Of a DNA stretch of 52,734 nucleotides, positions 12,081 through 43,863 are shown one piece after another. Position 1 is the first letter of the stretch; each line of letters begins with the position of its first letter. Below the pieces are notes generated by a model. It was not told where the DNA came from, ran no database searches, and saw only the letters and a program-made list of their open reading frames with translations. The position numbers and the translations under genes are program-made. Source of the DNA: Nanobdellota archaeon (GTDB taxonomy: Archaea > Nanobdellota > Nanobdellia > Pacearchaeales > GW2011-AR1); NCBI GenBank assembly GCA_038045185.1, contig JBBSYO010000020.1, positions 1 to 52,734 on the forward strand. Direction: 5' to 3'.

Positions 12081-12752
12081 TTAAAGTCTCTTCTGCTTAT
12101 CCCGCCAACTCCAATACTCTTCTTTCCCTATAACCACATGATCGACAACATTTATGTCAAGAGAGTTGCCTGCATTGATTATTCTTTTTGTAATATCTAA
12201 GTCTTCCCTTGAAGGAGTTGGGTCTCCGGAAGGATGATTATGAATCAAGACTATTTTAGAAGCTGAATTCTTCAGCACGGGCTTGAATATCGTCTTGGCA
12301 TCAAAAATAGTTGAATCCATAGTTCCCTTAGAAATCAACTGCTCGCCGATAATGTGATTCTTTGTATTAAGCATTAAAACAATAAAATGCTCTTGCTTCT
12401 CATCCTTCAATCTATCATGAAACAAATCAAAGACATCCTTGGCACAAGTTATCTTTTTAACTGGGTGTTTGGCTTGTGAGCGCCTCTTGCCTAATTCGGC
12501 CATGGCAAGCAATTGCATAGCTTTGCTGGGACCGATACCTTTGATGCTTTGAAGTTCAACTAAAGAACATTCGAATAACTTATCTATGCCATGTTCTGCA
12601 ATAAGTCGATTTGACATATCAATAACGTTCTCGCCTTTACTTCCTGTCCTCAAGATTATAGCGAAAAGCTCGGCATCGCTTAGCGCTTGCGGACCATGTT
12701 TTAGGAAACGCTCTCTCGGCCTGTTCTGCTTCGGCATGTCATGGATTCTCAT
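12081..12752 (-). CDS. radC: RadC-like JAB/MPN domain protein
   Basis: 223 aa. N-terminal MPKQNRPRERF, an HhH-like IKGIGPSKA, and the JAMM motif HNHPSGDPTPS. Confidence 0.9.
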   Translation of the reverse strand: MRIHDMPKQNRPRERFLKHGPQALSDAELFAIILRTGSKGENVIDMSNRLIAEHGIDKLFECSLVELQSIKGIGPSKAMQLLAMAELGKRRSQAKHPVKKITCAKDVFDLFHDRLKDEKQEHFIVLMLNTKNHIIGEQLISKGTMDSTIFDAKTIFKPVLKNSASKIVLIHNHPSGDPTPSREDLDITKRIINAGNSLDINVVDHVVIGKEEYWSWRDKQKRL

Positions 12753-12782
12753 GGCTATGAATAGAAAAAATAGTTAATAATT

Positions 12783-14045
12783 TTAACTCAATCCCTCATT
12801 TATTTTCTTTAAATTCCAAAGAATAACTTTTTGCAATGTTTGCAGGAGTTTTTCATCTTCTCTTTTTTTTGATCCTTTTGTATACCCCATATATTCATCC
12901 AATAATCCAAACGGGATGTCGAAAATTGGAATGCCTCTTGATTGCAATAAATGAAATGTTATTAATCTCGTTGTTCTGCTGTTTCCATCTGCAAACGGAT
13001 GAATGTGCTGGAATTCATTGTGGAAATAAACGGCAAAATTTAAAATTTCCCTAATAGATGATTTTTCTTTTCTGACAAACTCATCATACTTCTCAAATAA
13101 AGCATCTAATTCTCTTTTGATATTCTCTGCTTTAGTGATTTTAAAATCAGGATTCCCTTTAATATAGACTTCATCTGTTCTTATTTTGCCTGCAATTTTC
13201 GGAACATTTCTCATAGCTATTCCATGATAATTAAGAACAGACGCGATATTCAAAACCTTCTTTTCCGCGCTATCTTTCAGCATTTGCAGGATTGCTTCCT
13301 GATAATTCTTTACTTCATCAACATCCAGGCTCTTTAGATTGCCCGGGATAACCTTGTCCTGCAGTATTTTGAAAGTCTCTGATAATGTTATAGGATTTCC
13401 CTCTAATGAAAGGCTATGATAAACAAAAGAAATTTCAAAATCCCTTACAACTTTTCTGTATCCAGCCTCATCTTTTTTTCTTAATCTCTTAAAAATATTT
13501 AATTCCCTTTCTATCTCTTTGCTGTAAACATGGGTGCTTTCTGTTATAACTTCATGCTTATAACCAAAGTAAATAAGAAGATTGTTCAAAAGGATATTAT
13601 AGAATATCTTTGCCCTCAAGGGTTTTCTTGAAATAATAAGGACCAATCCAAATCTGTTTAATATTTCCAGGTACTTTTTAAAAGTTCTTGGGTGAGTATC
13701 CGCGTCTTTGGGGGTAATCTCCTCTTTTTGCAAAGCTTTGCTCAAAAATGCCGCAAAATTCTTGTCAAGTAAATAATTGTAACTAACATTGTTTTTAAGA
13801 CAATGCTGAATTATTCCATATAAGATTTCTGCCTTTTTGTTCATGTCTGCTTCAAAGCCATATTCAGTTTTTCTAAGGAGACCAAGTGCAACCAACTCTC
13901 TAAGCTGTTTATGTATTGCGTGATAATCTCCCTCAGATTTATTAAACCCCCTAACAACATCCACAGGCTTCATTGGGGCTCTGTTCTTATAGATTAATTC
14001 AAAAATGTCATATTTGGTGACCATAACAATACAGACTCTTTTCAA
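12783..14045 (-). CDS. Fic/DOC family protein with N-terminal wHTH-like region
   Basis: Fic motif HPFADGNSRTTR (HxFx[D/E]GNxRxxR). 420-aa ORF; the true start may be the internal MVTKYD. Confidence 0.85.
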   Translation of the reverse strand: MKRVCIVMVTKYDIFELIYKNRAPMKPVDVVRGFNKSEGDYHAIHKQLRELVALGLLRKTEYGFEADMNKKAEILYGIIQHCLKNNVSYNYLLDKNFAAFLSKALQKEEITPKDADTHPRTFKKYLEILNRFGLVLIISRKPLRAKIFYNILLNNLLIYFGYKHEVITESTHVYSKEIERELNIFKRLRKKDEAGYRKVVRDFEISFVYHSLSLEGNPITLSETFKILQDKVIPGNLKSLDVDEVKNYQEAILQMLKDSAEKKVLNIASVLNYHGIAMRNVPKIAGKIRTDEVYIKGNPDFKITKAENIKRELDALFEKYDEFVRKEKSSIREILNFAVYFHNEFQHIHPFADGNSRTTRLITFHLLQSRGIPIFDIPFGLLDEYMGYTKGSKKREDEKLLQTLQKVILWNLKKINEGLS

Positions 14046-14117
14046 CTTTAAAAAGCTTTCTATTCGGCATAAAAAGTAACATATTTTGTAACAAATAGTG
14101 CTAAATGTATCTATTGT

Positions 14118-14192
14118 CGTGCTTCAAAAAACGCTCTCTCGGCCTGTTTTGCTTCGGCATGTCATGGATTCTCATGGCTATGAATAGAAAAA
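14118..14192 (-). repeat. displaced radC 5' end (promoter-proximal region plus 19 codons), remnant B
   Basis: Minus strand reads MRIHDMPKQNRPRERFLKH and then diverges to a stop. It differs from intact radC at 6 nt in 5 codons, all synonymous. The upstream ggctatgaatagaaaaa is identical. Confidence 0.85.
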
Positions 14193-14633
14193 CTAATTAT
14201 TTGAATTCCTTTTAAGAGTAACCCTTTCTTCTTTTTGGTCAAAGATAATGACAAACTTATCAAAAAAGCCTGCTCTCCCAAGCAAAACAGGGATTTCCTG
14301 GCCGTCAAGGACAATTCCTTTGTTCAAGATAACTTTTACAGGCAGGTCAAATTTATATGTTTCATGAGGCTTTCCAATTTCTAAGAACAGTTTAGACTGC
14401 ACTGCTGGAACTTTTCCTCCGATACCAGCCGCATCTTCCTTTTTGCCGCTTAAATCAACCCCTAATAATTCTGCTACTTCTTCGGGTATTGCTGAGACAT
14501 CTGCTCCAGAATCGAGCAGAGCTACAAAAGTATATTTCCCGCCTGCCCCAGATAAGGTAACGGGAATTGAAGGAGACTTTACTTCTATATTATTTGGTCT
14601 TTTTACACGTTTGTAACGAAAGGCAAGGCTCAT
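14193..14633 (-). CDS. retropepsin-like (clan AA) aspartic protease
   Basis: 146 aa with ALLDSGADVSAIP (D-S/T-G-A active-site signature). Confidence 0.7.
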   Translation of the reverse strand: MSLAFRYKRVKRPNNIEVKSPSIPVTLSGAGGKYTFVALLDSGADVSAIPEEVAELLGVDLSGKKEDAAGIGGKVPAVQSKLFLEIGKPHETYKFDLPVKVILNKGIVLDGQEIPVLLGRAGFFDKFVIIFDQKEERVTLKRNSNN

Positions 14634-14843
14634 TTAGAAGATCATTGTTTCTTCACTTGGTACGCGGGCAATAATAAATTTCTTCCCGCCCGATAGAGTC
14701 TTTGCTCTCTCGACAACTTCCTTTAAGTTTCTGCCGTGTGCAAGTATTCTGTTTTCAGCTACAGCTATCCACTCCCCGGCATATTTACTAATATCGGTTT
14801 CCATAAAATAATTATAGGCAAGTTCCTGGGATGATTTTGTCAT
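14634..14843 (-). CDS. small partner protein (DUF5678-like by recollection)
   Basis: 69 aa with GEWIAVAENRILAHG...IIARVP. Its stop abuts the start of the aspartic protease ORF. Confidence 0.4.
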   Translation of the reverse strand: MTKSSQELAYNYFMETDISKYAGEWIAVAENRILAHGRNLKEVVERAKTLSGGKKFIIARVPSEETMIF

Positions 14844-14994
14844 ATTATTCTTTCTTAATGTCCTTATTTAAAGGTTCTCAAGCCTTCCAAGAAGTAGCAA
14901 CAAAGACAACTTTAGAAGAATACCTCCTTTTATTCATAGTATCAAATATACTCATTAATATATAAAGATTGTTCTTAACTATTGCTCGAGAATA

Positions 14995-15020
14995 TCATGG
15001 ATTCTCATGTGATTGATTAG
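14995..15020 (-). repeat. displaced radC 5' end, remnant C (MRIHD plus upstream-like bases)
   Basis: tcatggattctcatg is identical to the radC start region. The minus strand reads MRIHD and then ILEQ-stop. Confidence 0.5.
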
Positions 15021-15328
15021 AGGTTCATCTCCTCAAGCTCCTGGCTGACTAGGGATTCAGCTTCTTCTAACTGGAAAGCAACATCGGGATATTTTTTAAT
15101 GCTCTTATTTTTGAAGAATTCAATCGCAACCCTCTTTATATCCTGCTTATCTTCCTCATTCCAGTTGAATTCCTTCGCGCTTTTAATCGCAGAAGCCCGA
15201 TACTCGCTTTCCTCATAGAGCAAATGGCTCATTGACTCAGGCTTGTTTGTGTAACGAGCAAGCATCTTATGCAATACAACGTTGCCTATGATTTTCCCAA
15301 GCGTCTTTAAAGCACTATTTTTTCCCAT
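15017..15328 (-). CDS. hypothetical protein (103 aa)
   Basis: ORF overlapping the 3' end of the upstream nucleotidyltransferase ORF by 22 nt; no motif recognised. Confidence 0.35.
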   Translation of the reverse strand: MGKNSALKTLGKIIGNVVLHKMLARYTNKPESMSHLLYEESEYRASAIKSAKEFNWNEEDKQDIKRVAIEFFKNKSIKKYPDVAFQLEEAESLVSQELEEMNL

Positions 15329-16128
15329 TTTGACTCGAGAATCTCCTTATCTGTTTTTTCAGACAAGTTTCTTATATACATTAGTGCCCGCTTTTTTTCC
15401 AATTTAGACGCGCTGTTGCTTTTCAGCTGTTTCATAAGCCTCTCGCCCAGTTCGTTCCTGACGCTCTCATTTAACATTTTGTTATCCACAATTTTCCTTA
15501 ATAAAAGCCTAACAAGCATTACATTTCTGAGCGATTGGTAAATTTCCCTGCCTGCTGAATCTTCGTCATCAATGTCGCTCCAGTCCAGCTTCATCCGAAG
15601 GTCTAATTTTGACAGATCTGCCTTTGGGAGAAGATTGAACGTGCCGTGAATTGCCTTAAAATCCTTTAACTGGTAAATTAAAGAAGGGCTATGGGAGTAT
15701 TGGGACAAAATTGAATCTTTCGAGTAAAGTTGCATATCAAGGTTAAGGGCTGCTTTTTTCCCTTTTTTCTCAATCGTTTCTATCAACTCTCTCTTTTTGC
15801 TCTTTGGCAGTTCTTTCTTTGTCACTACAATCACATCTATATCATTATATTCCTTATAATTGCTCTGCACCGCAGAACCGCAGATAATTATCGAATCTAA
15901 GTTAGGCACGTTATCTAATACAATCTTTTTTATTTTATTCTCAATTGCCCTTGCTTTTTGGTTGTATTCTATCCTATTCAGGATTTCGCCTGTATTTATT
16001 TTTCCTATCTCCAGCAGCTTGGGTCTTATGCTCTTGCTGAGAATATTTGCTTCATTCTGAGTAAGACTAACCCCACTAAGTTTCTTGGCGATTATTTCAT
16101 TCTCCCTTTCTGTCATTATCTTAACCAT
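15307..16128 (-). CDS. nucleotidyltransferase-fold (MNT-like) protein with helical C-terminal region
   Basis: IICGSAVQSNYKEYNDIDVIVV matches the minimal NTase signature GS-x(9-11)-D-x-D. Confidence 0.6.
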   Translation of the reverse strand: MVKIMTERENEIIAKKLSGVSLTQNEANILSKSIRPKLLEIGKINTGEILNRIEYNQKARAIENKIKKIVLDNVPNLDSIIICGSAVQSNYKEYNDIDVIVVTKKELPKSKKRELIETIEKKGKKAALNLDMQLYSKDSILSQYSHSPSLIYQLKDFKAIHGTFNLLPKADLSKLDLRMKLDWSDIDDEDSAGREIYQSLRNVMLVRLLLRKIVDNKMLNESVRNELGERLMKQLKSNSASKLEKKRALMYIRNLSEKTDKEILESKWEKIVL

Positions 16129-16170
16129 ATAATATCTTATAGTATTAAGTGCTATTTAAAGGCCTCTATC

Positions 16171-16371
16171 TTAGGATTCTGCTTCGGCATGTCCTTGATT
16201 CTCATTTTTCTTCTTTTTCTTAAGAATTATCTTGCCATCTTTAGCATGTATATCAAGATAATCCCCTTCTTCAATGCCTGCTTCTCTTATTATTAAGGGC
16301 GGAATATTAACCATATATTTGTAATAATCCTTATTTTTGTGCTTGCGCAGGAATCTTTTTTGCACTTTCAC
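16171..16371 (-). CDS. AbrB/SpoVT-type (MazE-like) small DNA-binding protein
   Basis: GTG start. YMVNIPPLIIREAGIEEGDYLDIHAKDGKIIL resembles a swapped-hairpin AbrB domain. The 3' end runs into radC remnant D. Confidence 0.5.
   Translation of the reverse strand: MKVQKRFLRKHKNKDYYKYMVNIPPLIIREAGIEEGDYLDIHAKDGKIILKKKKKNENQGHAEAES
16177..16205 (-). repeat. displaced radC 5' end, remnant D (MRIKDMPKQN)
   Basis: 29 nt with 2 mismatches to the radC start region (ttctgcttcggcatgtccttgattctcat). Confidence 0.6.
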
Positions 16372-17571: not shown

Positions 17572-17829
17572 ATGGAATCAGTAACTATCAAGCTTGAAAG
17601 CGATTTTCTCAAAGCTTTAGAGAGAACTATGAAAAAACACCGCTATATGACCAAAACAGAGTTCATACGTCAGGCAATGCGCGACAAAATGAACGAATTG
17701 GAAAAAGAAGAAACATTAAAAAATGTAGAAAAGCTGTTCGGCTCTTCAAAACACAAGACTACTGATGAGCAACTGCATGAAGCAGGAGAGAGGGCAGTCA
17801 GGATTTTAGAAAAGAAATTCAGGACCTAA
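17572..17829 (+). CDS. ribbon-helix-helix (CopG-like) protein
   Basis: N-terminal VTIKLESDFLKALERTMKKHRYMTKTEFIRQAMRD fits an RHH strand plus two helices. ccgaaagccttaaata promoter about 30 nt upstream. Confidence 0.6.
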   Translation: MESVTIKLESDFLKALERTMKKHRYMTKTEFIRQAMRDKMNELEKEETLKNVEKLFGSSKHKTTDEQLHEAGERAVRILEKKFRT

Positions 17830-18241
17830 GCAGTTCATTAGTTCTATAAGACACAATTATATCAGTTATCTGCTTAAAATGATGATCCAGAGTCACAAGA
17901 ACTGCTCTGCTGTCGCGCGCAATAAGCGCATGCAAAGCATCTTTTCGCGGAATTTTTCTCTTTAATGAAAGATCTTTTGATATTCCTATCTGTTTATCTG
18001 TTGCTTCTAGAAAAATAAGAATCTTACGCAAAGGCATAATCAGCGATTCTAATTCGTAACGAGAATATCCTGCTTCCTCAAGCTCTATTATCGTTAAATC
18101 AGAATAAAGAATTCTATCATTTTTGCTAATTATTTTACTTATAAGTTTCCGAGCCCATGCGCCTTTCGGAAGATTAGGCTCATCCCTGTTTTCAAAGAAA
18201 TCAAGCCAAACAGAAGTATCAAAATAGAACCTCTTTTCCAT
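17819..18241 (-). CDS. PIN-domain nuclease (VapC-like)
   Basis: FYFDTSVWLDFF N-terminal acidic strand and C-terminal LVTLDHHF. Confidence 0.7.
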   Translation of the reverse strand: MEKRFYFDTSVWLDFFENRDEPNLPKGAWARKLISKIISKNDRILYSDLTIIELEEAGYSRYELESLIMPLRKILIFLEATDKQIGISKDLSLKRKIPRKDALHALIARDSRAVLVTLDHHFKQITDIIVSYRTNELLRS

Positions 18242-18298
18242 CAGAAAATCAAGAACAATTGCTAATTAAACTTTCTTCTCGGGCAGCCTTGCTCGGGC

Positions 18299-18315
18299 TT
18301 AATAACCTTTTTATA
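18299..18315 (+). promoter_or_regulatory. promoter motif TTAATAACCTTTTTATA (copy 2 of 3)
   Basis: Its TATA part lies about 25 nt upstream of an in-frame GTG at 18337. Confidence 0.5.
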
Positions 18316-18336
18316 ACTCGGTTCTTTATACATATC

Positions 18337-18990
18337 GTGCCGTTCAAACTCTCCCCCTCAACATTAAGCTTAATGCATGAATGCCCGCGATGCTTCTGGC
18401 TCACTAGCCACAAGATTTGGGCGAGACCTGCAGGCATATTCCCCTCGCTTCCAAGTGGAATGGACGGGATACTCAAAGCGCATTTTGACAAGTTTATGGA
18501 AAAGGGCACGTTACCACCTGAACTATGCAATAATTCAGAATGCAAGAACTTAAAGCTATTTGATGACGCAGAACTCTTGAAAGAGTGGAGAAACTCAAGA
18601 AGGGGATTATGGTTCGAAGATAAAGAGGAGAACGTGCTGCACGGAGGAATTGATAACCTGCTTGTAAACAAGGCAAATGGCAAGCTTATTGTTCTTGATT
18701 ATAAGACACGAGGATTTCCATTAAAAGACGACACTCATGAGCACTATCAGGACCAGCTTAATATTTATGCTTGGCTTCTTAAGACGTTAGGACGCAAAGT
18801 GGAAGATTTTGCTTATTTGCTGTTCTATCATCCAAAGGAAGTCCTTGAAACAGGGGAAGTGGTGTTTAATACTGACTTGAAGAAGATGAAGGTTGTGCCT
18901 GAAGATGCTGAAAAGCTGTTCAACAAGGCGATTAAGATGCTAAATGGCGAGTGCCCGAAGAAGATGTGCGAGTGGTGCGAGGGACGATAA
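18337..18990 (+). CDS. Cas4-like PD-(D/E)xK nuclease with Cys cluster
   Basis: N-terminal CPRCFW, VLDYKT (D-x-K), QLNIYAWLL (QxxxY), and C-terminal CPKKMCEWC. ORF opens at 18259, but GTG 18337 fits the promoter spacing. Confidence 0.7.
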   Translation: MPFKLSPSTLSLMHECPRCFWLTSHKIWARPAGIFPSLPSGMDGILKAHFDKFMEKGTLPPELCNNSECKNLKLFDDAELLKEWRNSRRGLWFEDKEENVLHGGIDNLLVNKANGKLIVLDYKTRGFPLKDDTHEHYQDQLNIYAWLLKTLGRKVEDFAYLLFYHPKEVLETGEVVFNTDLKKMKVVPEDAEKLFNKAIKMLNGECPKKMCEWCEGR

Positions 18991-19038: not shown

Positions 19039-20031
19039 CTAAGACAATCTCTTCATTTCCAGCCAACTAATAAGTTTAGTCTTATCGGGAGGCACATCTT
19101 TCCTTGAATAATATACAAAATCCATTCTTTCATAGCATTTAGGACAATAACAAACTCGTCCTTCAGAAGCTTTTATGGAAATTGATTTTGCTATACTTGA
19201 CTTTAGAAATTTCTTTTTTCTCCTTGAATAAGCGCCGTAATATCTTGCAAGCTTCTGATTCTTTTCTGGAACATGCTGAATAATAGCAGAAATAAAATCA
19301 TGCACAAGCATGATTTTATAGTGTATCTTTTCATCATGATCTTTGTAATAGAATTTAACAGCCTCTTTATTGTAGGCAATTATCCTTGAGTTTGCTATTG
19401 CTGGATGCCGAACATATCTGCCCAAATATCTGGCTAAGCCCTTGCGAGAGGATATTCTATCCTCTCTGACATAAACACAAAAGCCATTAGGATATTTTCT
19501 ATATGCTTCCTCAATAATTCCTTTAGGAAGATATTTCTTCAGTTTTTTGAGGATATTATATTCCCATTTTTTATGCAGAGCATTATATGGAATATAATTT
19601 CCCAACGGAACAAATTTTCCCTGTTCATCAAATCCCCCTTCAGTAACAATAGTATGAACATGGGGTTGATTCTTCAAATCTTTTCCGAATGGATGAAACA
19701 CTTCAATAACTCCAGGAATTAAATCTCTTCTTTTCATATTAGAAAATACTTCTCGAATTGTTTTATATGCAACATCCATCAAAATCTTGTACAGCTTTCT
19801 ATCTTCTTGAAAATATTTCCAGAGCATATCTGGAATTCCAAAGACAAGATGCCTATGGAAGATATTTTTCTCTAATTTTTCAGCTAACATTGATGCCCAT
19901 TGGTCAGCATACCTCTTGCCACAGCAAGAGCATAGCCTTGAATTGCAGCCAAATGGGAGAAATCTATATTCGTTGCAATTCTTGCAATAATACCAAAATC
20001 CTCCTCTGCTTTCATCTTTGCAAGAAAGCAT
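19039..20031 (-). CDS. IS91-family (HUH Y2, rolling-circle) transposase
   Basis: Zn-binding CKNC...CNSRLCSCCG, HUH-type QPHVHTIVTEGG, and Y2-region RYLGRYVRHPAIANSRI and ARYYGAYSRR. Confidence 0.8.
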   Translation of the reverse strand: MLSCKDESRGGFWYYCKNCNEYRFLPFGCNSRLCSCCGKRYADQWASMLAEKLEKNIFHRHLVFGIPDMLWKYFQEDRKLYKILMDVAYKTIREVFSNMKRRDLIPGVIEVFHPFGKDLKNQPHVHTIVTEGGFDEQGKFVPLGNYIPYNALHKKWEYNILKKLKKYLPKGIIEEAYRKYPNGFCVYVREDRISSRKGLARYLGRYVRHPAIANSRIIAYNKEAVKFYYKDHDEKIHYKIMLVHDFISAIIQHVPEKNQKLARYYGAYSRRKKKFLKSSIAKSISIKASEGRVCYCPKCYERMDFVYYSRKDVPPDKTKLISWLEMKRLS

Positions 20032-21725: not shown

Positions 21726-21797
21726 GGCGGTTGTAGTGTACCGGTAGCACACCAGCTTGTGGCGCTGTTAGAGTGGGTTCAACTCCCACCTTCCGCT
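21726..21797 (+). tRNA. tRNA-His (GTG) with encoded G-1; two U-U mismatches in the acceptor stem
   Basis: D-arm GTGT/GCAC, anticodon loop TTGTGGC, T-arm GTGGG-TTCAACT-CCCAC. Acceptor GCGGTTG versus CTTCCGC mismatches at 5:68 and 6:67. Confidence 0.6.
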
Positions 21798-22088: not shown

Positions 22089-22420
22089 ATCAAAAAGTCC
22101 TTGAGTTTACCACACCTTAAAACGTCAGGAATCATGGATTCCTGAGCGCCTCGAAATTCAAAGAATTTCTCAGCCTCAAGAACTATTGTTCTTGATGGCC
22201 ATCAAAGATTTGCATCTTTGAGGGGTGTGGTTTGTGTGGGACTCACCAAGAACTTGGTTCTTGGGTGCACGAAGAACCGAAGGTTGCTTCGTGTTTGGAT
22301 GCAAGAAAATCATTGCTAAAGATGATTTTCTGCACAGAGAATTACGAGAGCAAGCAATTCTCTTGTGCTCAAGAAGCGACCACACCATGAATGGTGTGGT
22401 TTTCGTCAAGCTTCTTGACA
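22089..22420 (+). repeat. structured hairpin-modular element E1 (long form)
   Basis: Starts ATCAAAAAGTCCTTGAGT. Homologous along its length to 35119-35350, with indels that are whole hairpins. At least 9 stem-loops are readable. Confidence 0.8.
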
Positions 22421-26321: not shown

Positions 26322-26370
26322 GTTACGACAGAAACGAAAGATTTATATACTTCAATAAGTTCGTATTATT

Positions 26371-26539
26371 AATCACCTCTTTTTCCCAGGAGAGGACGTT
26401 TCATCCATCTTCTTGAAGGGTGAAGCCTCCTCTCTTCGGGTTTGAACAACTATAGAGTTTAAGGAAATCGTTCTTCAAGACCTTCCAAGAAAGTCCTCGC
26501 AGAGGCAGGAAGGCATATCCGAACGAAGGAAGAGGTGAT
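26371..26539. ncRNA. candidate structured small RNA (family and strand unresolved)
   Basis: 10-bp terminal helix ATCACCTCTT/AAGAGGTGAT. Nested hairpin CGTTC..CCTTCC..CCTC-gca-GAGG..GGAAGG..GAACG. TATA boxes lie at the appropriate distance on both sides. No ORF. Confidence 0.4.
26470..26539. repeat. 70-bp direct repeat, left copy (part of the candidate RNA)
   Basis: Identical 70/70 to 27380-27449 by direct comparison. Confidence 0.9.
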
Positions 26540-26545
26540 AAACCA

Positions 26546-26926
26546 CTAATCTTTTTTCAAATCAATAACTTTGAACCCAAACTTTTCATAGACCTTATCA
26601 GAGCTTATTATTTCATTTTCCTTAGCAAACGCCATGAGCAATGCGTCAAAAATACTAGCCCCTTGCTCAATATATTCAGTAGCTTTAAAGAACAATTCCC
26701 ACTTGATAAAATCTAACGCCGCAATCCTAGATATTTGAAATAGGGTCTCTTTCAATGGGATGCCTTCCCTAGTACAAACAATCATTAATTCAATAAGGGT
26801 AAATGGAGTTATGTAGATTTCCCCTTTATTTTTTTCATAGATTTTTTTAGCTTTTTCTTTTAGCCAGTCAGAATTCTTTAACAAAGCCAAGAAAAAGTCG
26901 GAATCAGCGTATTTTTTTGAATGCAT
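26546..26926 (-). CDS. vapC: PIN-domain toxin VapC
   Basis: 126 aa with an ADSDFFLALL N-terminal strand. Overlaps the upstream AbrB-type antitoxin gene. Confidence 0.75.
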   Translation of the reverse strand: MHSKKYADSDFFLALLKNSDWLKEKAKKIYEKNKGEIYITPFTLIELMIVCTREGIPLKETLFQISRIAALDFIKWELFFKATEYIEQGASIFDALLMAFAKENEIISSDKVYEKFGFKVIDLKKD

Positions 26927-27161
26927 TCTTCTCTATCTCCTCCCTAACTTCTTCCTTTAGCCTTCTAATAGTTTTCTTCTTTAGCCTATCTCCTCCAAGT
27001 TTTCCTAGGGCTTCAATAGGGTCATCTTCAATAGGTTCAATAGAGAGACCTCTATCGGAAGTCTTTAATATTAATGTTTTGAACTGCAAAAGTTCCCTTA
27101 TCTCTTCAGGAATATACAGCCTCCCTTGTTTATCAAAATAAACTATTTTCTCCATAAACAC
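26904..27161 (-). CDS. vapB: AbrB/SpoVT-type antitoxin VapB
   Basis: KIVYFDKQGRLYIPEEIRELL is typical of the AbrB swapped-hairpin fold. Confidence 0.7.
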   Translation of the reverse strand: MFMEKIVYFDKQGRLYIPEEIRELLQFKTLILKTSDRGLSIEPIEDDPIEALGKLGGDRLKKKTIRRLKEEVREEIEKNAFKKIR

Positions 27162-27215
27162 TAAATATTACCATTATTTATAAACTTTTCCATTTATCGT
27201 GATAAATACCATTTT

Positions 27216-27345
27216 ATTAGAATTTTTGGGTTGAATACCCCACAGCTTGCTGTGGAGTGAAAATTCTAATTAGAAAATCGTGAATCAGAAATTTCCGAAT
27301 ACCGCGGAGCTTGCTCCGGTTCGGTAGGAAATTTCAACGATTTTC
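27216..27345 (+). repeat. 130-bp double-hairpin element, copy 1
   Basis: Two long imperfect hairpins, each with an AGCTTGCT apex. Matches the reverse complement of 39561-39690 with 4 mismatches. Confidence 0.9.
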
Positions 27346-27379
27346 TTTATCTTCTCGGGTTTAAAATCAGGAGTTGGGG

Positions 27380-27449
27380 GTTCTTCAAGACCTTCCAAGA
27401 AAGTCCTCGCAGAGGCAGGAAGGCATATCCGAACGAAGGAAGAGGTGAT
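27380..27449. repeat. 70-bp direct repeat, right copy
   Basis: Identical to 26470-26539. Confidence 0.9.
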
Positions 27450-27501
27450 GATTATTTTACTAACCAACAATTTATAAAGAAAACGCTTTTAACAACTGCA
27501 A

Positions 27502-27864
27502 ATGAAAGCACGAATCTGGGGCGCCCTCATAGGGTTGATATTCTCGCTCATAATAACGAGTTTTAGCCTGATTCGCATAATCCCCGGAAAACTCTCCCTT
27601 CTCATCACGCCCCTAGCAACCATCTTTACTTTCCCAGCCACAATCCTATCAAGATTTATCTTCGGTACACTATTAAGGCAACAAACTTACTCAAATATAT
27701 TATGGATGCGCTGGCCCTGGGGACTAATACTTATAGCCATAGTGTGGATTTTGATTGGATGGGTCGCAGGAGCAGTAATAGATTTCATAAGGAAGAAACC
27801 CGTAACATTATATCCTACAGCTCAAGCAAAGGAATTTGATAGGTTCATAGAAACAGAACAGTAA
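27502..27864 (+). CDS. integral membrane protein (about 3-4 TM)
   Basis: Hydrophobic segments throughout; no motif recognised. Confidence 0.5.
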   Translation: MKARIWGALIGLIFSLIITSFSLIRIIPGKLSLLITPLATIFTFPATILSRFIFGTLLRQQTYSNILWMRWPWGLILIAIVWILIGWVAGAVIDFIRKKPVTLYPTAQAKEFDRFIETEQ

Positions 27865-34911: not shown

Positions 34912-35118
34912 CGATTAGGGCAAGGGACGCTGATATTTAGCTGTTTACGCCTTTGCTACATGGAAAAAATTTTCCAATATTCGAAAGTTTTCAATCCAAA
35001 AAGTGCCTAATCACCATAAGATATTTCTGGGAAAAAGATATCTGTAACACCCGAAGATACAACAATACATTAAGGCAGAGAACTTTATATAGAACAAAAG
35101 AGAAAGGAAAGTATGAAA

Positions 35119-35350
35119 ATCAAAAAGTCCTTGAGTCTACCACAGCTTAAAACCTCAAGAACTGCAGTTCTTGATGGCCGTCAAAAATCTGAACTTAAGA
35201 AGATTTTTGAGGGGCGTGGTTTGTGTGGGACTTTGGGATGCAAGAGAAATCAGAAGATTTCTCGGCACAGAGAATTGCACGAGGAAAAAGCAATTCTCTT
35301 GTGCTCACGAACGCCACACTCTAAAGAGTGTGGTTTTAACGTTCGTGACA
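35119..35350 (+). repeat. structured element E2 (long form), directly upstream of pyrH
   Basis: Homologous to E1. tttatata at 35084-35091 lies about 27-30 nt upstream of its first base. Confidence 0.8.
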
Positions 35351-35364
35351 GAAGAACTTTGGTT

Positions 35365-36036
35365 ATGAGCTTGGGCGGCAGTGTCATCATACCAGAGCAA
35401 AAAAATGACAATTTTTTGCTGAAACTGCGCGCCACACTGAAGAAATATTATCGCACGCACAAGTTCGTGCTCGTCTGCGGAGGCGGTTCAATTGCCCGCG
35501 CGTACATAACCCTTCTTGAAAAAGAGCACAAAAACCATCGCGAGCAATCAGAGGCAGGCATTCGCGCAACGCGCATGAATGCAGAGCTTATCATGCAAGT
35601 ATTCGGAAAAGAGGCGAATTCAGCACTCCCGAAAAACATGAAATCAGTCAGGTCAGAGCTTCACAAAAATAACGTTGTCGTCTCTGGAGCACTCCGCTAT
35701 GCCCCGCATCAGACTTCAGACACCACTGCCGCTAAACTAGCAGCCTATCTGAAATCAGAATTCGTCAACCTAACCAACGTTCCTGGTCTATACACCAGCG
35801 ACCCGCGCAAAAACAAAGCAGCAAAACTAATCCCACACATCTCATGGAAAGAATTTGAAGCAAAGGCGCATGCAATAAGATTCAGTCCAGGAGAACATTT
35901 TGTCCTTGACCAGAAAGCTTCGACACTCATCAGGAAACACAAGATAAAAACATTCATTATGGGGAAAGATGCAAACAACCTCAAAAAATTCCTTAATAAT
36001 GAAAAGTGGCTCGGAACGCAAATCGACTCCCAATGA
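35365..36036 (+). CDS. pyrH: archaeal-type UMP kinase
   Basis: MSLGGSVI..., VLVCGGGSIARAYI, GIRATRMNAELI. The ORF-track extension back to 35113 only reads through element E2. Confidence 0.8.
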   Translation: MSLGGSVIIPEQKNDNFLLKLRATLKKYYRTHKFVLVCGGGSIARAYITLLEKEHKNHREQSEAGIRATRMNAELIMQVFGKEANSALPKNMKSVRSELHKNNVVVSGALRYAPHQTSDTTAAKLAAYLKSEFVNLTNVPGLYTSDPRKNKAAKLIPHISWKEFEAKAHAIRFSPGEHFVLDQKASTLIRKHKIKTFIMGKDANNLKKFLNNEKWLGTQIDSQ

Positions 36037-37930: not shown

Positions 37931-39559
37931 ATGGCAAAGCTAAAATTTCCGCGCAAACTGATTGAACAGCACCTTAAGTTAGACAACTCAACAATAACCG
38001 ACCTTAGTTTATTTGGCACCCCGCTCGAATCACTAACTAATGAAGAAGTGGAACTCGAAATATCTGCCAACCGCCCCGACCTTCTTTCGGCGCGCGGATT
38101 TCTTCGCGCCTTTCAGGCTTACAAAGGCAAAAAAACAGGGCTCAGAACATACGCCGTAGCGCACGACCGTAAACCGAACTACACAGTCGTTATAGACAAG
38201 GGCGTTAAATCATGTCCCCGACCGCACATAGCCTGTGCCGTAGTTAAAAACCTTTCGCTAACAGATGCGACTCTTAAAGAGATTATACGATTACAAGAAA
38301 AGTTAGCACTCACGCTTGGCCGTCAACGCAAGAAATGCGGCATAGGTATCTATCCAATGGAAAAAATAAATTTCCCAATCAGATACGAATCTCGTAAGCC
38401 ATTAGATATCGAGTTCACGCCTCTCGGTTTTACAAAATCAGCAAACGCTCACCAGATTCTGCAAAAACACCCGATAGGAAAAGAATATGCACACCTGCTA
38501 GATGGCGCGGATAGATTTCCCATATTCATCGACGCAAAAAAACAGATTCTTTCCATGCCTCCGATAATTAACAGCCAGAACACTGGTCACGTCACCGCGC
38601 AAACAAAAGATGTCTTCATCGAATGCTCAGGTCAGGACATTACAATACTCAATGCCGCGCTATCCGTCTTCGTCACGTTTTGTGCAGAAATAGGTGGCAC
38701 GATTGAAGCAGTTGAAATGCGCGGCGATAATAAACATATCTCGCCAGACCTTAAAGCAAAAACAATAAAGCTGAATAAAGAATCAATTGAACGCACACTC
38801 GGCATCACTCTAACTGAAAAAGAAATCGCACAGCTTCTCTCGCGGATGGGGCACGATTACAATAAAGGAGTCGTCACCTACGGTTGCTGGCGCATAGATA
38901 TCTTACACGAAGCAGATATCATTGAAGATATTGCTATTGCCTACGGCTATGATAAATTCACACCCATCATTCCAGGCATTTCCACAGTAGGAGAAGAAGC
39001 GTTCGAAAGCAAAGCCGAAACCAAAATAATCGAATCTTTGGTTGGCTTGGGCTTTCTCGAAACTACATCATTACACTTTATTACAGCAGAAGAAAAAGAA
39101 AGGGAAAAAGTAGAGCACCCCATAGAAGTCGAAGACCCGCGCACCGAGTATGCTTATCTAAGACCCAACCTGCTAATACCGACGCTAAGAACACTGGCGC
39201 ACAACCTCCACGCAGAATATCCTCAAAAAATATGCGAGACAGGAGCAGTATTCACCAGAAAACTTAATCAAATCAGAGAAGAACAGCACCTCATAATTGC
39301 GCACACGCCAGCCAACTTTACCATCATAAAGCAAGAACTTGATTATCTATTCCGTATGCTCAATCTCACTTACGAACTAAAAGAAACACAGGTCAACGGA
39401 CTAATAGAGGGCCGCACAGCATCAGTCATCTTTGAAGGCAAAGAAATCGGCTTCATTGGAGAATTTCATCCCTCAACATTGCGGGAATGGCATCTCAAAA
39501 TGCCTCTTGCCGTAGCAGAGATTAATCTAATACATATCTATGAGATATTGAAGAAATAA
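37931..39559 (+). CDS. pheT: phenylalanyl-tRNA synthetase beta subunit (archaeal type)
   Basis: 542 aa immediately after pheS. B3/4- and B5-like regions (ISANRPDLLS, IGIYPM). Confidence 0.9.
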   Translation: MAKLKFPRKLIEQHLKLDNSTITDLSLFGTPLESLTNEEVELEISANRPDLLSARGFLRAFQAYKGKKTGLRTYAVAHDRKPNYTVVIDKGVKSCPRPHIACAVVKNLSLTDATLKEIIRLQEKLALTLGRQRKKCGIGIYPMEKINFPIRYESRKPLDIEFTPLGFTKSANAHQILQKHPIGKEYAHLLDGADRFPIFIDAKKQILSMPPIINSQNTGHVTAQTKDVFIECSGQDITILNAALSVFVTFCAEIGGTIEAVEMRGDNKHISPDLKAKTIKLNKESIERTLGITLTEKEIAQLLSRMGHDYNKGVVTYGCWRIDILHEADIIEDIAIAYGYDKFTPIIPGISTVGEEAFESKAETKIIESLVGLGFLETTSLHFITAEEKEREKVEHPIEVEDPRTEYAYLRPNLLIPTLRTLAHNLHAEYPQKICETGAVFTRKLNQIREEQHLIIAHTPANFTIIKQELDYLFRMLNLTYELKETQVNGLIEGRTASVIFEGKEIGFIGEFHPSTLREWHLKMPLAVAEINLIHIYEILKK

Positions 39560-39560
39560 A

Positions 39561-39690
39561 GAAAATCGTTGAAATTTCCTACCGAACCGGAGCAAGCTCC
39601 GCGGTATTCGGAAATTTCTACTCCACGATTTTCTAATTAGAATTTTTACTCCACAGCAAGCTGTGGGGTATTCAACCCAAAAATTCTAAT
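39561..39690 (-). repeat. 130-bp double-hairpin element, copy 2 (inverted relative to copy 1)
   Basis: Starts 2 nt after the pheT stop and ends overlapping the ATG at 39689. 126/130 identity to copy 1 after reverse-complementing. Confidence 0.9.
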
Positions 39691-40941: not shown

Positions 40942-41013
40942 AGCCTCAGGGGGGAATTGAACCCCCGACTTCAACATTACCAATGTTGCGTTCTACCGCT
41001 GAACTACTGAGGC
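40942..41013 (-). tRNA. tRNA-Thr (GGT)
   Basis: GCCTCAG-TA-GTTC-AGCGGTA-GAAC-G-CAACA-TTGGTAA-TGTTG-AAGTC-GGGGG-TTCAATT-CCCCC-CTGAGGC-T. Confidence 0.9.
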
Positions 41014-42006
41014 AAGTCTGTCAAGATGTCGCTCGTTAGAAAAACCTATAAGATCCATCCAACGCTTCACCTGATTAATACCGTAAATCTCTATTATATA
41101 AATTTGTCTTTTTTCATTAAAAGTATTATATAGGCTAAAATGTCGAGATAAATAAGAAACTAATTGATTATACAAATCTTTACTCACAGTCTGTAAAGCT
41201 ATTCTAGGATAATATAATTTGTAACTTTTTCTTTTATCTATAAAAACACAACCATCAGTATCAAATATGCCTCGGATAGTTGCTCTAACGAGTTCATCCT
41301 TAGATTGCATAATTCTATCGGGAATGGCAATAGTATGAGCTTTCTTGCCTGGAACGAATCCAAAACCATGTTTAAAAAAATTAAAAAGGTCTTTAGAATA
41401 AAAAACAATCCTCACACCATTAACCTTTCCATAAGAAGAATAAATATGAGGTTTTAAATCGGGAACAACAGATTTGAAAGTGGGAATTATTAATTCATTA
41501 TAATATTGCACATCATATCTTCTATCGCCTGCAAATTCTATATGATACAATTTATTATTATAAAGGTTAAAACATCCATCCCCGATAAAAGCACCTACAC
41601 ATTGACATATTGAATGAGATAATTGTAAAGAAGCTAAAGAATCTTTAAAGGAAGAATCTTCTATTTTATGATACCTCTTAATATTTTTTAATCCCGTTTT
41701 CCTGCCCTCATCAAATTTCTTAAAGTTAATAAGATAAGCCTTTTTTCCCCCCATAACTTGCCCAAAATTATCAGGTAGTTTTTCAATGTTAGAAGAAACT
41801 TTTATTTTATCAGCTTCAGATAAAAATTCAATCAATCTTACAAATAAACTTTCAGGTATAAAGCAAGATCCATTTCTATAATGTTCCAAGGTGGATTTTG
41901 GTATTCCAAATTTGCCTCTTAGACCTTTCCAAGAGAGATTAAAAGATATCTTAACAGAATCAAATAAGTAATTTCTAGTTAAATTGTCCCTAATTTCTAT
42001 TCTCAT
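40993..42006 (-). CDS. double-motif LAGLIDADG homing-endonuclease-like protein
   Basis: Motifs CVGAFIGDGCF and IRGIFDTDGCV. Start taken at MRIEIRDN (TATA aaatatataaa about 27 nt upstream). The last 7 codons and stop lie inside tRNA-Thr. Confidence 0.8.
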   Translation of the reverse strand: MRIEIRDNLTRNYLFDSVKISFNLSWKGLRGKFGIPKSTLEHYRNGSCFIPESLFVRLIEFLSEADKIKVSSNIEKLPDNFGQVMGGKKAYLINFKKFDEGRKTGLKNIKRYHKIEDSSFKDSLASLQLSHSICQCVGAFIGDGCFNLYNNKLYHIEFAGDRRYDVQYYNELIIPTFKSVVPDLKPHIYSSYGKVNGVRIVFYSKDLFNFFKHGFGFVPGKKAHTIAIPDRIMQSKDELVRATIRGIFDTDGCVFIDKRKSYKLYYPRIALQTVSKDLYNQLVSYLSRHFSLYNTFNEKRQIYIIEIYGINQVKRWMDLIGFSNERHLDRLASVVQR

Positions 42007-42038
42007 ATTTGATAACACGACTCGGGTTTATATATTTT

Positions 42039-42702: not shown

Positions 42703-42775
42703 AGCCCCGTCGTATAGTGGTCAAGTATTCGGGCCTCTGGCGCCCGAGACCCAGGTTCGAATCCTGGCGGGGCTA
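42703..42775 (+). tRNA. tRNA-Pro (TGG)
   Basis: AGCCCCG...CGGGC-CTCTGGC-GCCCG...CCAGG-TTCGAAT-CCTGG-CGGGGCT-A. TATA gatttttaag about 28 nt upstream. Confidence 0.9.
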
Positions 42776-42966: not shown

Positions 42967-43863
42967 GTGAGAATTCGCTTAGAAAAAGGAAAACAGCGAG
43001 AGTTAATTGAACAGGCTAAAATGAATTTAACCTGGAATCAATTAGGCAAAAGAGTGAATCTAAATTCTCATTATCTTCAAAATGAATTAAGAAATGAACA
43101 AAAACTCATTTCAGAAGAGCTATTTAATCATTTATTATCATTGACAAAGAAAGATTATTCATGCTTTATCGCGGAAAAGCTCGCAGATAACTGGGGAAGA
43201 TCAAAGGGCGGGAAAAATTCTAAGGGCAATACTAAAGTTATTTCTCCTTCGAAGAAGAATATTTATTTAGCCGAATTAATCGGAATCATACTGGGAGACG
43301 GACATGTTGAGAAACGCGTAAATGACACAACCAGGTGTTATACTCTTAAAATTGCAGGTCATATAAAAAATGACTGCGCGTATTTATCTTATTACGTGAG
43401 CAACCTCATTAAGCAGATATATGGAGAATTTCCTTCTATCCGTAAAGATGCCAATTATGGTGTAATGTGGGCTGTCCTGCACGGCAGAGGTGTAGTGGAA
43501 GATCTAACAAATAAGGGCTTGGGAACAGGCAACAAGAAAAAGAATAATCAAGGAATTCCCGATTGGATTAAAGAAAACAAATCCTTTCTTAAAGTTTGCC
43601 TTCGTGGTCTTATTGACACAGACGGATCAATCCATCGGATTTCAAAGAAAAATAAAAATCTCAGAATTTGTTTTACCAGTTACATTCCTCAATTACTAAG
43701 TGATGCCAGAGAAGCATTTATTTGCGCAGAATATTTTCCTTCAAAAATAATTAAAGATAATCAGTTCTTCATTACGCGTAAAGAAAACATTGCTCGTTAT
43801 GTGAAAGAAATAGGATTTGCCAACGAAAAACATTTAAAAAGACTTGAAAGATTAGGTAGCTAA
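42967..43863 (+). CDS. double-motif LAGLIDADG homing-endonuclease-like protein
   Basis: Motifs LAELIGIILGDGHV and LRGLIDTDGSI. GTG start about 25 nt after TATA ctatttatag. The stop abuts the first base of tRNA-Glu. Paralogous to 40993-42006. Confidence 0.8.
   Translation: MRIRLEKGKQRELIEQAKMNLTWNQLGKRVNLNSHYLQNELRNEQKLISEELFNHLLSLTKKDYSCFIAEKLADNWGRSKGGKNSKGNTKVISPSKKNIYLAELIGIILGDGHVEKRVNDTTRCYTLKIAGHIKNDCAYLSYYVSNLIKQIYGEFPSIRKDANYGVMWAVLHGRGVVEDLTNKGLGTGNKKKNNQGIPDWIKENKSFLKVCLRGLIDTDGSIHRISKKNKNLRICFTSYIPQLLSDAREAFICAEYFPSKIIKDNQFFITRKENIARYVKEIGFANEKHLKRLERLGS

Follow-up and report, generated by a model that had tools for sequence, protein, structure and literature searches.

Contig JBBSYO010000020.1 of the Nanobdellota archaeon assembly GCA_038045185.1, a stretch of 52,734 nt that we call the window and to which all coordinates refer, carries a small vapBC toxin–antitoxin (TA) pair between two perfect direct repeats of 70 nt. 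The left repeat forms the 3′ end of an intact gene for a structured RNA of an unclassified family, and the right repeat ends a second, displaced RNA segment that possesses neither the promoter nor the 5′ domain (Table 1). Read along the plus strand, the locus consists of the intact RNA gene, the cassette, and a displaced 3′ fragment, which is the pattern of insertions at tRNA genes. A miniature transposon-derived element separates the promoter of vapB from the displaced fragment.

Table 1. Coordinates of the features at the vapBC locus and of associated features in the window (BRE, transcription factor B recognition element; ORF, open reading frame; P1, terminal helix of the RNA; PATE/MITE, palindrome-associated/miniature inverted-repeat transposable element)
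Feature	Position	Strand	Description
RNA promoter	26322-26349	+	upstream box GTTACGACAG, 26322-26331; BRE CGAAAG, 26335-26340; TATA box ATTTATATA, 26341-26349
Structured RNA gene, intact, unclassified family	26371-26539	+	supported by fold, covariance model, covariation, and promoter
RNA 5′ domain	26371-26446	+	P1 5′ strand AUCACCUCUU, U-tract, long hairpin ending GGGUUUGAA
Resident linker of the RNA gene	26447-26469	+	
Repeat copy 1	26470-26539	+	"type-1" 3′ hairpin module and P1 3′ strand AAGAGGUGAU
Left junction	26540-26560	+	cassette starts directly after ...GGUGAU; T-tract TCTTTTTTC
vapC, 126-aa PIN-domain toxin	26546-26926	-	Pfam PF01850, E = 4.6e-11, residues 6-118
vapB, 83-aa putative antitoxin	26904-27155	-	overlaps vapC by 23 nt
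vapB promoter	27156-27217	-	TTTATAAA; AATGG(T/A)A operator-like repeats; ends in the TTTAT target of the miniature element
Ends-only IS200/IS605-type element (PATE/MITE), 133 bp	27218-27350	+	TAGAATTTTT...TTTCTTTAT; limits from four aligned close copies
Fragment F	27351-27379	+	CTTCTCGGGTTTAAA, which fits the consensus of the family where the 5′ domain ends, followed by a non-resident linker
Repeat copy 2	27380-27449	+	displaced 3′ hairpin module and P1 3′ strand; without promoter and 5′ domain
120-aa predicted membrane protein ORF	27502-27864	+	own TATA box, 27473-27480
Second copy of the 133-bp element	39556-39688	-	128/133 identical; separates the stop codon of pheT from the ATG of the next gene

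Architecture of the insertion

The two repeats agree at 70 of 70 nt, as a first-pass annotation of the region had already stated. Even with three mismatches tolerated, the 70-mer occurs only in these two copies in the window (shuffled sequences predict none), which rules out the dispersed repeat that the annotation had considered. Between the copies it had seen only vapC, vapB, and a double-hairpin element, all of which we find, together with 29 nt in front of the right repeat that it had not singled out (fragment F). The last base of the repeat is at the same time the last base of the RNA gene, and the sequences of relatives part from the window at precisely this point. Since the cassette begins exactly after this base, the RNA gene is uninterrupted, and the insertion, formerly placed inside the RNA gene, sits at its 3′ end. 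The layout of 5′ fragment, cassette, and intact target, proposed for an RNA on the minus strand, has to be replaced by intact gene, cassette, and 3′ fragment, since the RNA is encoded on the plus strand (see below). The T-tract at the left junction, which falls within the C-terminal codons of the opposite-strand vapC, is a likely candidate for the terminator of the RNA gene.

The arrangement of repeats and cassette is genuine. Nine independently assembled contigs from Hainich aquifer metagenomes, originating from several wells and covered up to 197x, agree with 99.1-99.99% identity; those that span the region all carry the same arrangement, and three short, low-coverage contigs stop within the two repeats, where assemblers are expected to break. 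These breaks could also be taken to favour a false join of two strain variants through the shared 70-mer. However, both copies are spanned in the same manner by seven contigs that were obtained independently, from different wells and different filter fractions and again at up to 197x, and a 70-nt repeat should lie below the typical read length, which leaves an assembly artefact hardly credible.

The target is a conserved structured RNA gene

Folding bears out the 169-nt segment with its 10-bp terminal helix and nested hairpins that had been recognized at first pass, with -69 kcal/mol on the plus strand (z = -5.7) and -60 kcal/mol on the minus strand (z = -4.0). Using scpA as an anchor, we retrieved the close relatives and 80 species-representative genomes. 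A covariance model built from four sequences (R1) finds the RNA in ~75 of the 80 scpA loci, with E-values from 1e-47 to 1e-5. In the loci with an R1 match, the RNA always lies just upstream of scpA and on the opposite strand; this divergent arrangement is found in ~74 of the 78 evaluable Pacearchaeota and Woesearchaeota genomes, and in four loci with sufficient upstream sequence the RNA is absent beside scpA. Across the 29 best hits, 97.1% of the cells are paired and 24 of 50 pairs have changed on both sides; none of 500 shuffles was as good as the observed alignment, and sliding the partners by 1-3 columns lowers the pairing to 40-60%. Many pairs swap U-A for U-G, which is possible on the plus strand only.

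The RNA is preceded by an invariant predicted promoter: in 79 loci, AGTTACAACA..CCGAAAG(A/G)TTTAAATA stands at a fixed distance of ~29 nt ahead of AUCACC, with the box AGTTACAACA, the BRE CCGAAAG, and the TATA box ATTTAAATA (ATTTATATA in the window) in all of them. The predicted transcription start falls at ~26370-26372. The TATA box noted earlier on the left flank is therefore real and shared by the whole family, and the conserved BRE/TATA combination reads as a plus-strand promoter from which a stable RNA is strongly expressed. Together with the strand-specific G-U pairs and the better fold, it assigns the RNA to this strand; we reject a minus-strand RNA, which had been considered before, on the same promoter, folding, and G-U evidence. 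The view that an RNA gene was the target of the insertion is thus upheld by fold, covariance model, covariation, and promoter.

Within the family, the invariant part comprises the first ~75 nt, namely AUCACCUCUUUUUCCC, a ~20-bp hairpin with a covarying upper stem, and GGGUUUA. The 3′ part is modular. Roughly 45 genomes have the type-1 hairpin represented by the 70-mer, and the others have a CCnUCUAAAAnnGGCAC hairpin or different sequences. The type-1 module is displaced by 100-300 nt in L030, L068, and L072. At L068 (2743-2960), it lies ~180 nt away and is equipped with a BRE and TATA box of its own, which suggests that it may form a separate transcription unit, and at L072 (3440-3690) tandem duplications of ~120 nt, each beginning with UCAAGGGUUAAA, occupy the variable region of the RNA. 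The terminal helix (26371-26380/26530-26539) pairs an anti-Shine-Dalgarno-like strand (AUCACCUC; AUCACCUCUU in the window), which resembles the 3′ end of 16S rRNA, with a strand (GAGGUGAU; AAGAGGUGAU in the window) that resembles a Shine-Dalgarno sequence. Both strands are nearly invariant across the clade, and the main hairpin of the RNA likewise pairs GGAGAGG with CCUCCUC.

The Rfam search proposed at first pass assigns the locus to no known family, neither at the gathering score nor at E <= 10, and the RNA of seven diverse homologous loci has no match at E <= 1; its status as an RNA gene is supported by the other evidence given above. ARAGORN detects no tRNA at the RNA locus, and a literature search for a matching RNA of DPANN archaea returned nothing relevant. 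RNase P RNA, in which CR-I and CR-V form the long-range P4 helix, was considered and rejected: the CR-I-like GAAAGUCC is confined to the type-1 3′ hairpin, an optional module, and makes up the 5′ side of a local hairpin there, it has no CR-V-like partner, many family members do without the type-1 module, and Rfam gives no match. CCGAAC, GGCAGG, and the three-way architecture had suggested signal recognition particle RNA, 5S rRNA, and H/ACA or C/D sRNAs; these candidates fail since apical loops are unconserved, required boxes are absent, and no model matches. A small ORF or leader was dismissed as well, for there is no ATG, and covariation and the G-U pattern point to an RNA.

The vapBC pair

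In its encoded proteins and gene organization, the pair resembles type II TA systems of the VapBC kind, which combine a PIN toxin with an antitoxin of the AbrB/MazE fold: the short gene for the putative antitoxin runs into the PIN gene that follows it, the toxin has the acidic residues, the promoter has operator-like repeats, and close homologues are distributed patchily and in unrelated contexts. In VapC, D8, E46, D94, and D110 fit the positions of the PIN acidic quartet (aligned by eye), and 191 homologues are found in Nanoarchaeota. The N-terminal motif of VapB, GRLYIPEEIR, is AbrB/MazE/MraZ-like. In contrast to known systems, the antitoxin has no significant Pfam match (MraZ is hit weakly, E = 0.05), and the sequence is distant from all solved structures. 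Searches of the PDB with both proteins were uninformative. The pair may be active as a TA system. The region upstream of vapB is homologous in L077, L095, and L098, and its homology to L077 stops at ~27194.

Part of the right-hand copy is non-resident

Fragment F starts with CTTCTCGGGTTTAAA, which fits CUUCnnGGGUUUAAA, the sequence with which the 5′ domain ends in the family consensus. It is the sole match in the window to CTTCNNGGGTTTRAA, for which 0.18 matches are expected per window, and the motif stands 15 nt ahead of the 70-mer in the correct order and orientation. Moreover, R1 aligns 27340-27449 as a truncated gene with 68 bits. The resident gene has another version of the motif, CUCUUCGGGUUUGAA, and a different, longer linker that it has in common with L010. 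Since both motif and linker differ from the resident version, the upstream part of the right copy does not come from the resident gene. The right copy, ~100 nt in length, thus reads as a 5′-truncated, non-resident RNA gene, and this suggests that the incoming DNA may have carried a truncated RNA gene of its own. Of the 70-nt duplication described at first pass, the identity of the last 70 nt stands, yet the RNA-derived segment on the right extends to ~100 nt and begins with 29 nt of the non-resident version.

Empty sites and a homologous cassette in relatives

Sister lineages display the site without the insertion. A single RNA copy and no vapBC are found in L010/L011 (RNA 96% identical; nucleotide identity of the flanking genes, 85-91%), in L014/L015 (RNA 87% identical), and in L012 (RNA 84% identical), and all of them diverge from the window directly after ...GAGGUGA(U/G). 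These loci are empty sites, for which the first-pass annotation had proposed to look. Against these close relatives, the vapBC segment is an insertion, which agrees with the 840-bp integrated TA cassette that had been postulated; the segment carries no recombinase, and we use "integrated" for the outcome of the event, whose mechanism we infer. The postulated recent origin is supported.

A cassette at the same junction is present in L077, a different, non-sister Hainich species (scpA ~56% aa identity, RNA 73% nucleotide identity to the window). Its vapBC pair (79% nucleotide identity; 81% and 78% aa identity for VapC and VapB) begins right after ...GAGGUGAU of its own RNA and has a homologous T-tract and vapB promoter. 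It contains neither the hairpin element nor a second RNA fragment, and two unknown ORFs lie between vapBC and S27ae. The homology of the two cassettes is confined to vapBC and its promoter. At the RNA 3′ end, vapBC is missing both in the nearest relatives of L077 (L017, L016, L024) and in those of the window. Further close VapC homologues (79-86%) reside in unrelated contexts, for example between the genes for the TATA-box-binding protein and a phospholipase-D-like protein. In L095, a cassette of vapBC and one ORF lies between 36-nt repeats (89% identical) that derive from a protein gene's 3′ end, with the intact gene end on the upstream side, which is the same topology as in the window.

The stretch between the RNA and S27ae is variable throughout. 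In 50 genomes, its length ranges from ~15 nt to 2.6 kb and its content is unrelated (HicAB pairs, transporters, dehydrogenases, membrane proteins), which marks the 3′ flank of the RNA as a general hotspot. In the window, this stretch also holds the ORF for the 120-aa predicted membrane protein, which is absent from L010, L014/L015, and L012. The TATA box that had been read on the minus strand to the right of the second repeat (27471-27481) is, judging by the sequence, better interpreted as the predicted plus-strand promoter of this ORF. On the other side of the RNA, L012 (370-1060) has a different two-gene cassette (DUF7557, 77 aa, and a 113-aa ORF), which separates scpA from the promoter of the RNA; the promoter segment TTTATATC(C/T)CTT appears to be duplicated there.

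The hairpin element is an independent IS200/IS605-type insertion

The double-hairpin element, previously taken as a 130-bp part of the cassette, is an independent insertion of 133 bp between the vapB promoter and fragment F. Its two subterminal hairpins are homologous to each other and have the same orientation (GAATACCSCRSAGCTTGCTSYGG); it has no terminal inverted repeats, and the flanks of the four close copies are unrelated and without target duplication. The left flanks of these copies read TTTAT, TTCAT, GTTAT, and ATTAT. TTTAT also forms the end of the element itself. The window copy stands 3′ of TTTAT and the close copies 3′ of (T)TAT. A relaxed version of the hairpin motif is present in >120 metagenome stretches, often at contig ends and typically after TTTAT and a short linker. 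In several of them an ORF of ~145-150 aa starts 25-370 nt downstream, and the four such ORFs that were tested match the Pfam family Y1_Tnp (IS200-like transposase) with E = 5e-39 to 4e-32.

IS200/IS605 elements and PATEs have no terminal inverted repeats, make no target duplication, insert 3′ of a tetra- or pentanucleotide, and have a hairpin at each end (PMC7290912, PMC3201880). The window element shares with them the subterminal hairpins in the same orientation, the TTTAT target, and full-length relatives that encode Y1 HUH transposases, and differs in its size of 133 bp and in having neither tnpA nor tnpB. Since no Y1 transposase is encoded in the window, any mobility of the element must be provided in trans. 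Transposition of this type does not generate the 70-nt repeats. We rejected an attC-like site or an RNA gene as an explanation of the element, as its motif is the left-end hairpin of elements with Y1 transposases. In the second copy, the stop codon of pheT (39557-39559) lies inside the terminal ...CTTTAT of the element, and the ATG of the next ORF (39689) lies in the target-side flank. A further ORF-less element of ~200 bp was noted in a methanogen- or haloarchaeon-like context (L182, 3425-3650), in which each end has a CCCCGCAGCTTGCTGCGG hairpin and the internal sequence is conserved in many metagenome matches; it is a further widespread derivative of the ends-only IS200/IS605 type or, possibly, one that bears an RNA.

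Other gene fragments and mobile functions in the window

Elsewhere in the window, the 5′ end of radC, together with the 24 nt that precede it (12697-12776), is found again at 14120-14199 (91%) and 16150-16229 (60%). In this array (12081-16229), genes for Fic, aspartyl-protease-like, and nucleotidyltransferase proteins lie between the copies as cassettes split by 5′ fragments. The 5′ end (35119-35311) of an amino-acid-kinase gene (35113-36036) has a degenerate, indel-rich copy at 22089-22375, just downstream of tRNA-His (21727-21797). The sole transposase-like gene found in the window (19039-20031) encodes a Y2 (rolling-circle) transposase of the IS91 family, and a PD-(D/E)XK nuclease gene (18259-18990) and a further PIN gene (17819-18241) are located beside it. 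Two ORFs with LAGLIDADG_3 C-termini are associated with tRNA genes: one (40993-42018) overlaps tRNA-Thr (40942-41013), the other (42967-43863) abuts tRNA-Gln (42703-42775).

Discussion

The arrangement is best explained, with a probability of roughly 0.55, by the recent insertion of a small vapBC pair at the 3′ end of the RNA gene via a circular DNA that bore a truncated copy of the same gene. The 3′ end of the RNA gene would have acted as the attachment site, and a small circle would have contained vapBC beside a 5′-truncated RNA gene copy of ~100 nt, comparable to an attP. If this circle and the resident gene recombined in the manner of a Campbell-type integration, with the exchange inside the final 70 nt, the outcome would be, on the left, the resident 5′ part joined to the shared 70 nt, which restores an intact RNA gene followed by vapC, and, on the right, the truncated copy of the element (F and the 70-mer) in front of the former downstream DNA. 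The recombinase may have been a site-specific enzyme acting in trans or the homologous recombination machinery of the host; alternatively, an integrase may have been lost from a larger, decayed element, with the TA pair favouring retention of the remainder. Separately from this event, the 133-bp element would have inserted 3′ of a TTTAT that lay between F and the promoter of vapB. We infer the circle as intermediate, the mode of recombination, and the timing.

Several observations weigh against this explanation. The perfect match over 70 nt beside the divergent F demands either a donor that was identical over just this stretch or gene conversion. Among the contigs encoding vapC or the 120-aa ORF, an empty site of the same species was not found, and a duplicated RNA 3′ end, degenerate copies included, occurs in none of ~70 other genomes; since L077 does not have it either, the duplication is unique to the lineage of the window. 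Pfam searches revealed no integrase or other recombinase, whether of the tyrosine or the serine type, in the cassette or among those larger ORFs of the window that were scanned; the window does encode the Y2 transposase of IS91 type, several TA or defence functions, and a type I restriction-modification system. In scans of viral contigs, no circular form and no plasmid or virus with an attP was found, and neither the 70-mer, the RNA 5′ domain, the F-70-mer junction, nor the hairpin turned up. Finally, the vapBC pairs of the window and L077 are 79% identical at the nucleotide level, only moderately above the flanking genes (66-74%), and for this reason old vertical inheritance followed by many losses is compatible with the data.

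That last scenario would place vapBC downstream of the RNA already in the common ancestor of the window and L077, with an old duplication kept uniform by gene conversion and with losses through recombination between the repeats. The shared junction in two lineages and the modest excess in vapBC similarity fit this history, as does the tendency of direct repeats to favour deletion. Yet the cassette would have to have disappeared independently from ~70 sampled genomes, among them the closest relatives of the window and of L077. A second RNA fragment is missing from L077, the identity of the repeats is 100% even though the RNA differs by 4% from that of L010, and vapBC homologues occupy unrelated sites elsewhere; we regard this history as improbable. 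Still more so is a local tandem or segmental duplication of the RNA 3′ part during repair or replication that trapped vapBC and the element, possibly helped by single-strand activity of the transposon. Such an event would account for the perfect identity of the two 70-mers and for the transposon end that abuts F, and tandem duplications do occur in the RNA variable region of L072. However, F shows the spacing of the family consensus and a different linker rather than resident sequence, the cassette is missing in relatives and homologous to that of L077, and the transposition of IS200/IS605 elements leaves no duplicated target and mobilizes nothing but the DNA enclosed by the ends of the element (PMC7290912). 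Ancestral presence, local duplication, and misassembly are all less likely than an insertion.

The strongest competitor, though rather unlikely in itself, is that the locus represents the remnant of a larger integrase-encoding element, a plasmid or provirus, of which internal deletions left only vapBC and the attR-side fragment. TA pairs typically survive the decay of integrated elements. The attL/attR-like topology and the non-resident F are in line with this origin, and so are the other arrays of gene fragments and cassettes in the window (at radC and at the 5′ end of the amino-acid-kinase gene) and the two unknown ORFs that follow vapBC before S27ae in L077. It is opposed by the search for an integrase relic, which found none in cassette or window, and by the restriction of the window/L077 homology to vapBC and its promoter. 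Such a remnant differs from the insertion of a small circle only in the former content of the incoming molecule.

As a kind of integration, the pattern is known; what is unusual is the target and the minimal cargo. Elements and islets at the 3′ ends of tRNA and tmRNA genes, inserted at tyrosine-recombinase att sites and including the archaeal SSV- and pNOB8-type elements, likewise present an intact stable-RNA gene, an insert, and a displaced 3′ direct repeat. In both cases, the repeat ends at the last base of the gene, the incoming DNA supplies a surrogate 3′ end, relatives have empty sites, and the same site is used in different species. In contrast, the target in the window is an unclassified RNA of ~160 nt instead of a tRNA or tmRNA, and the insert is a ~0.7-kb vapBC segment (with a later transposon), for which neither an integrase nor an attP replicon was found. 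Similarities extend to cis-mobilizable elements (CIMEs) and integron cassettes, namely DNA without a recombinase between recombination sites, small cassettes of a single function, and TA genes as frequent cargo. The window, however, has no attC-type site and no nearby intI or attI, its single cassette is bounded by copies of the 3′ end of a host RNA gene, and an integron gene cassette was rejected, as there is no integrase and the hairpins belong to the IS200/IS605-type element and not to an attC.

A more far-reaching proposal, which we consider doubtful, is that the RNA represents an undescribed class of stable RNA, near-universal in Pacearchaeales and Woesearchaeales, whose 3′ module serves as the attachment site of a recombinase-less, integron-like cassette system. 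The invariant 5′ domain would then be combined with exchangeable 3′ modules, and each small cassette, here vapBC, would bring along a truncated RNA gene and integrate by recombining with the resident one. If true, co-occurring DPANN populations would exchange accessory genes in an integron-like manner.

The most interesting by-product of the analysis is the target itself, a clade-wide, structured, and unclassified RNA. In DPANN archaea, genomes are tiny and only a few non-coding RNAs are known. This RNA, whose promoter, 75-nt 5′ domain, and position beside scpA recur in ~74 of the 78 evaluable genomes, is among their best-conserved features and, as a clade-wide stable RNA, offers a concrete target for metatranscriptomics and biochemistry. 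The locus further provides a dated and polarized case of gene gain in an uncultivated symbiont lineage, with empty sites in sister lineages and a cassette at the same junction in a species of the same aquifer. If it is not the work of integrase-less cassettes, it would be an ordinary decayed integrated element at an unusual target; if such cassettes do move with a piece of their target gene, this would help to explain the many arrays of gene fragments and cassettes in these genomes.

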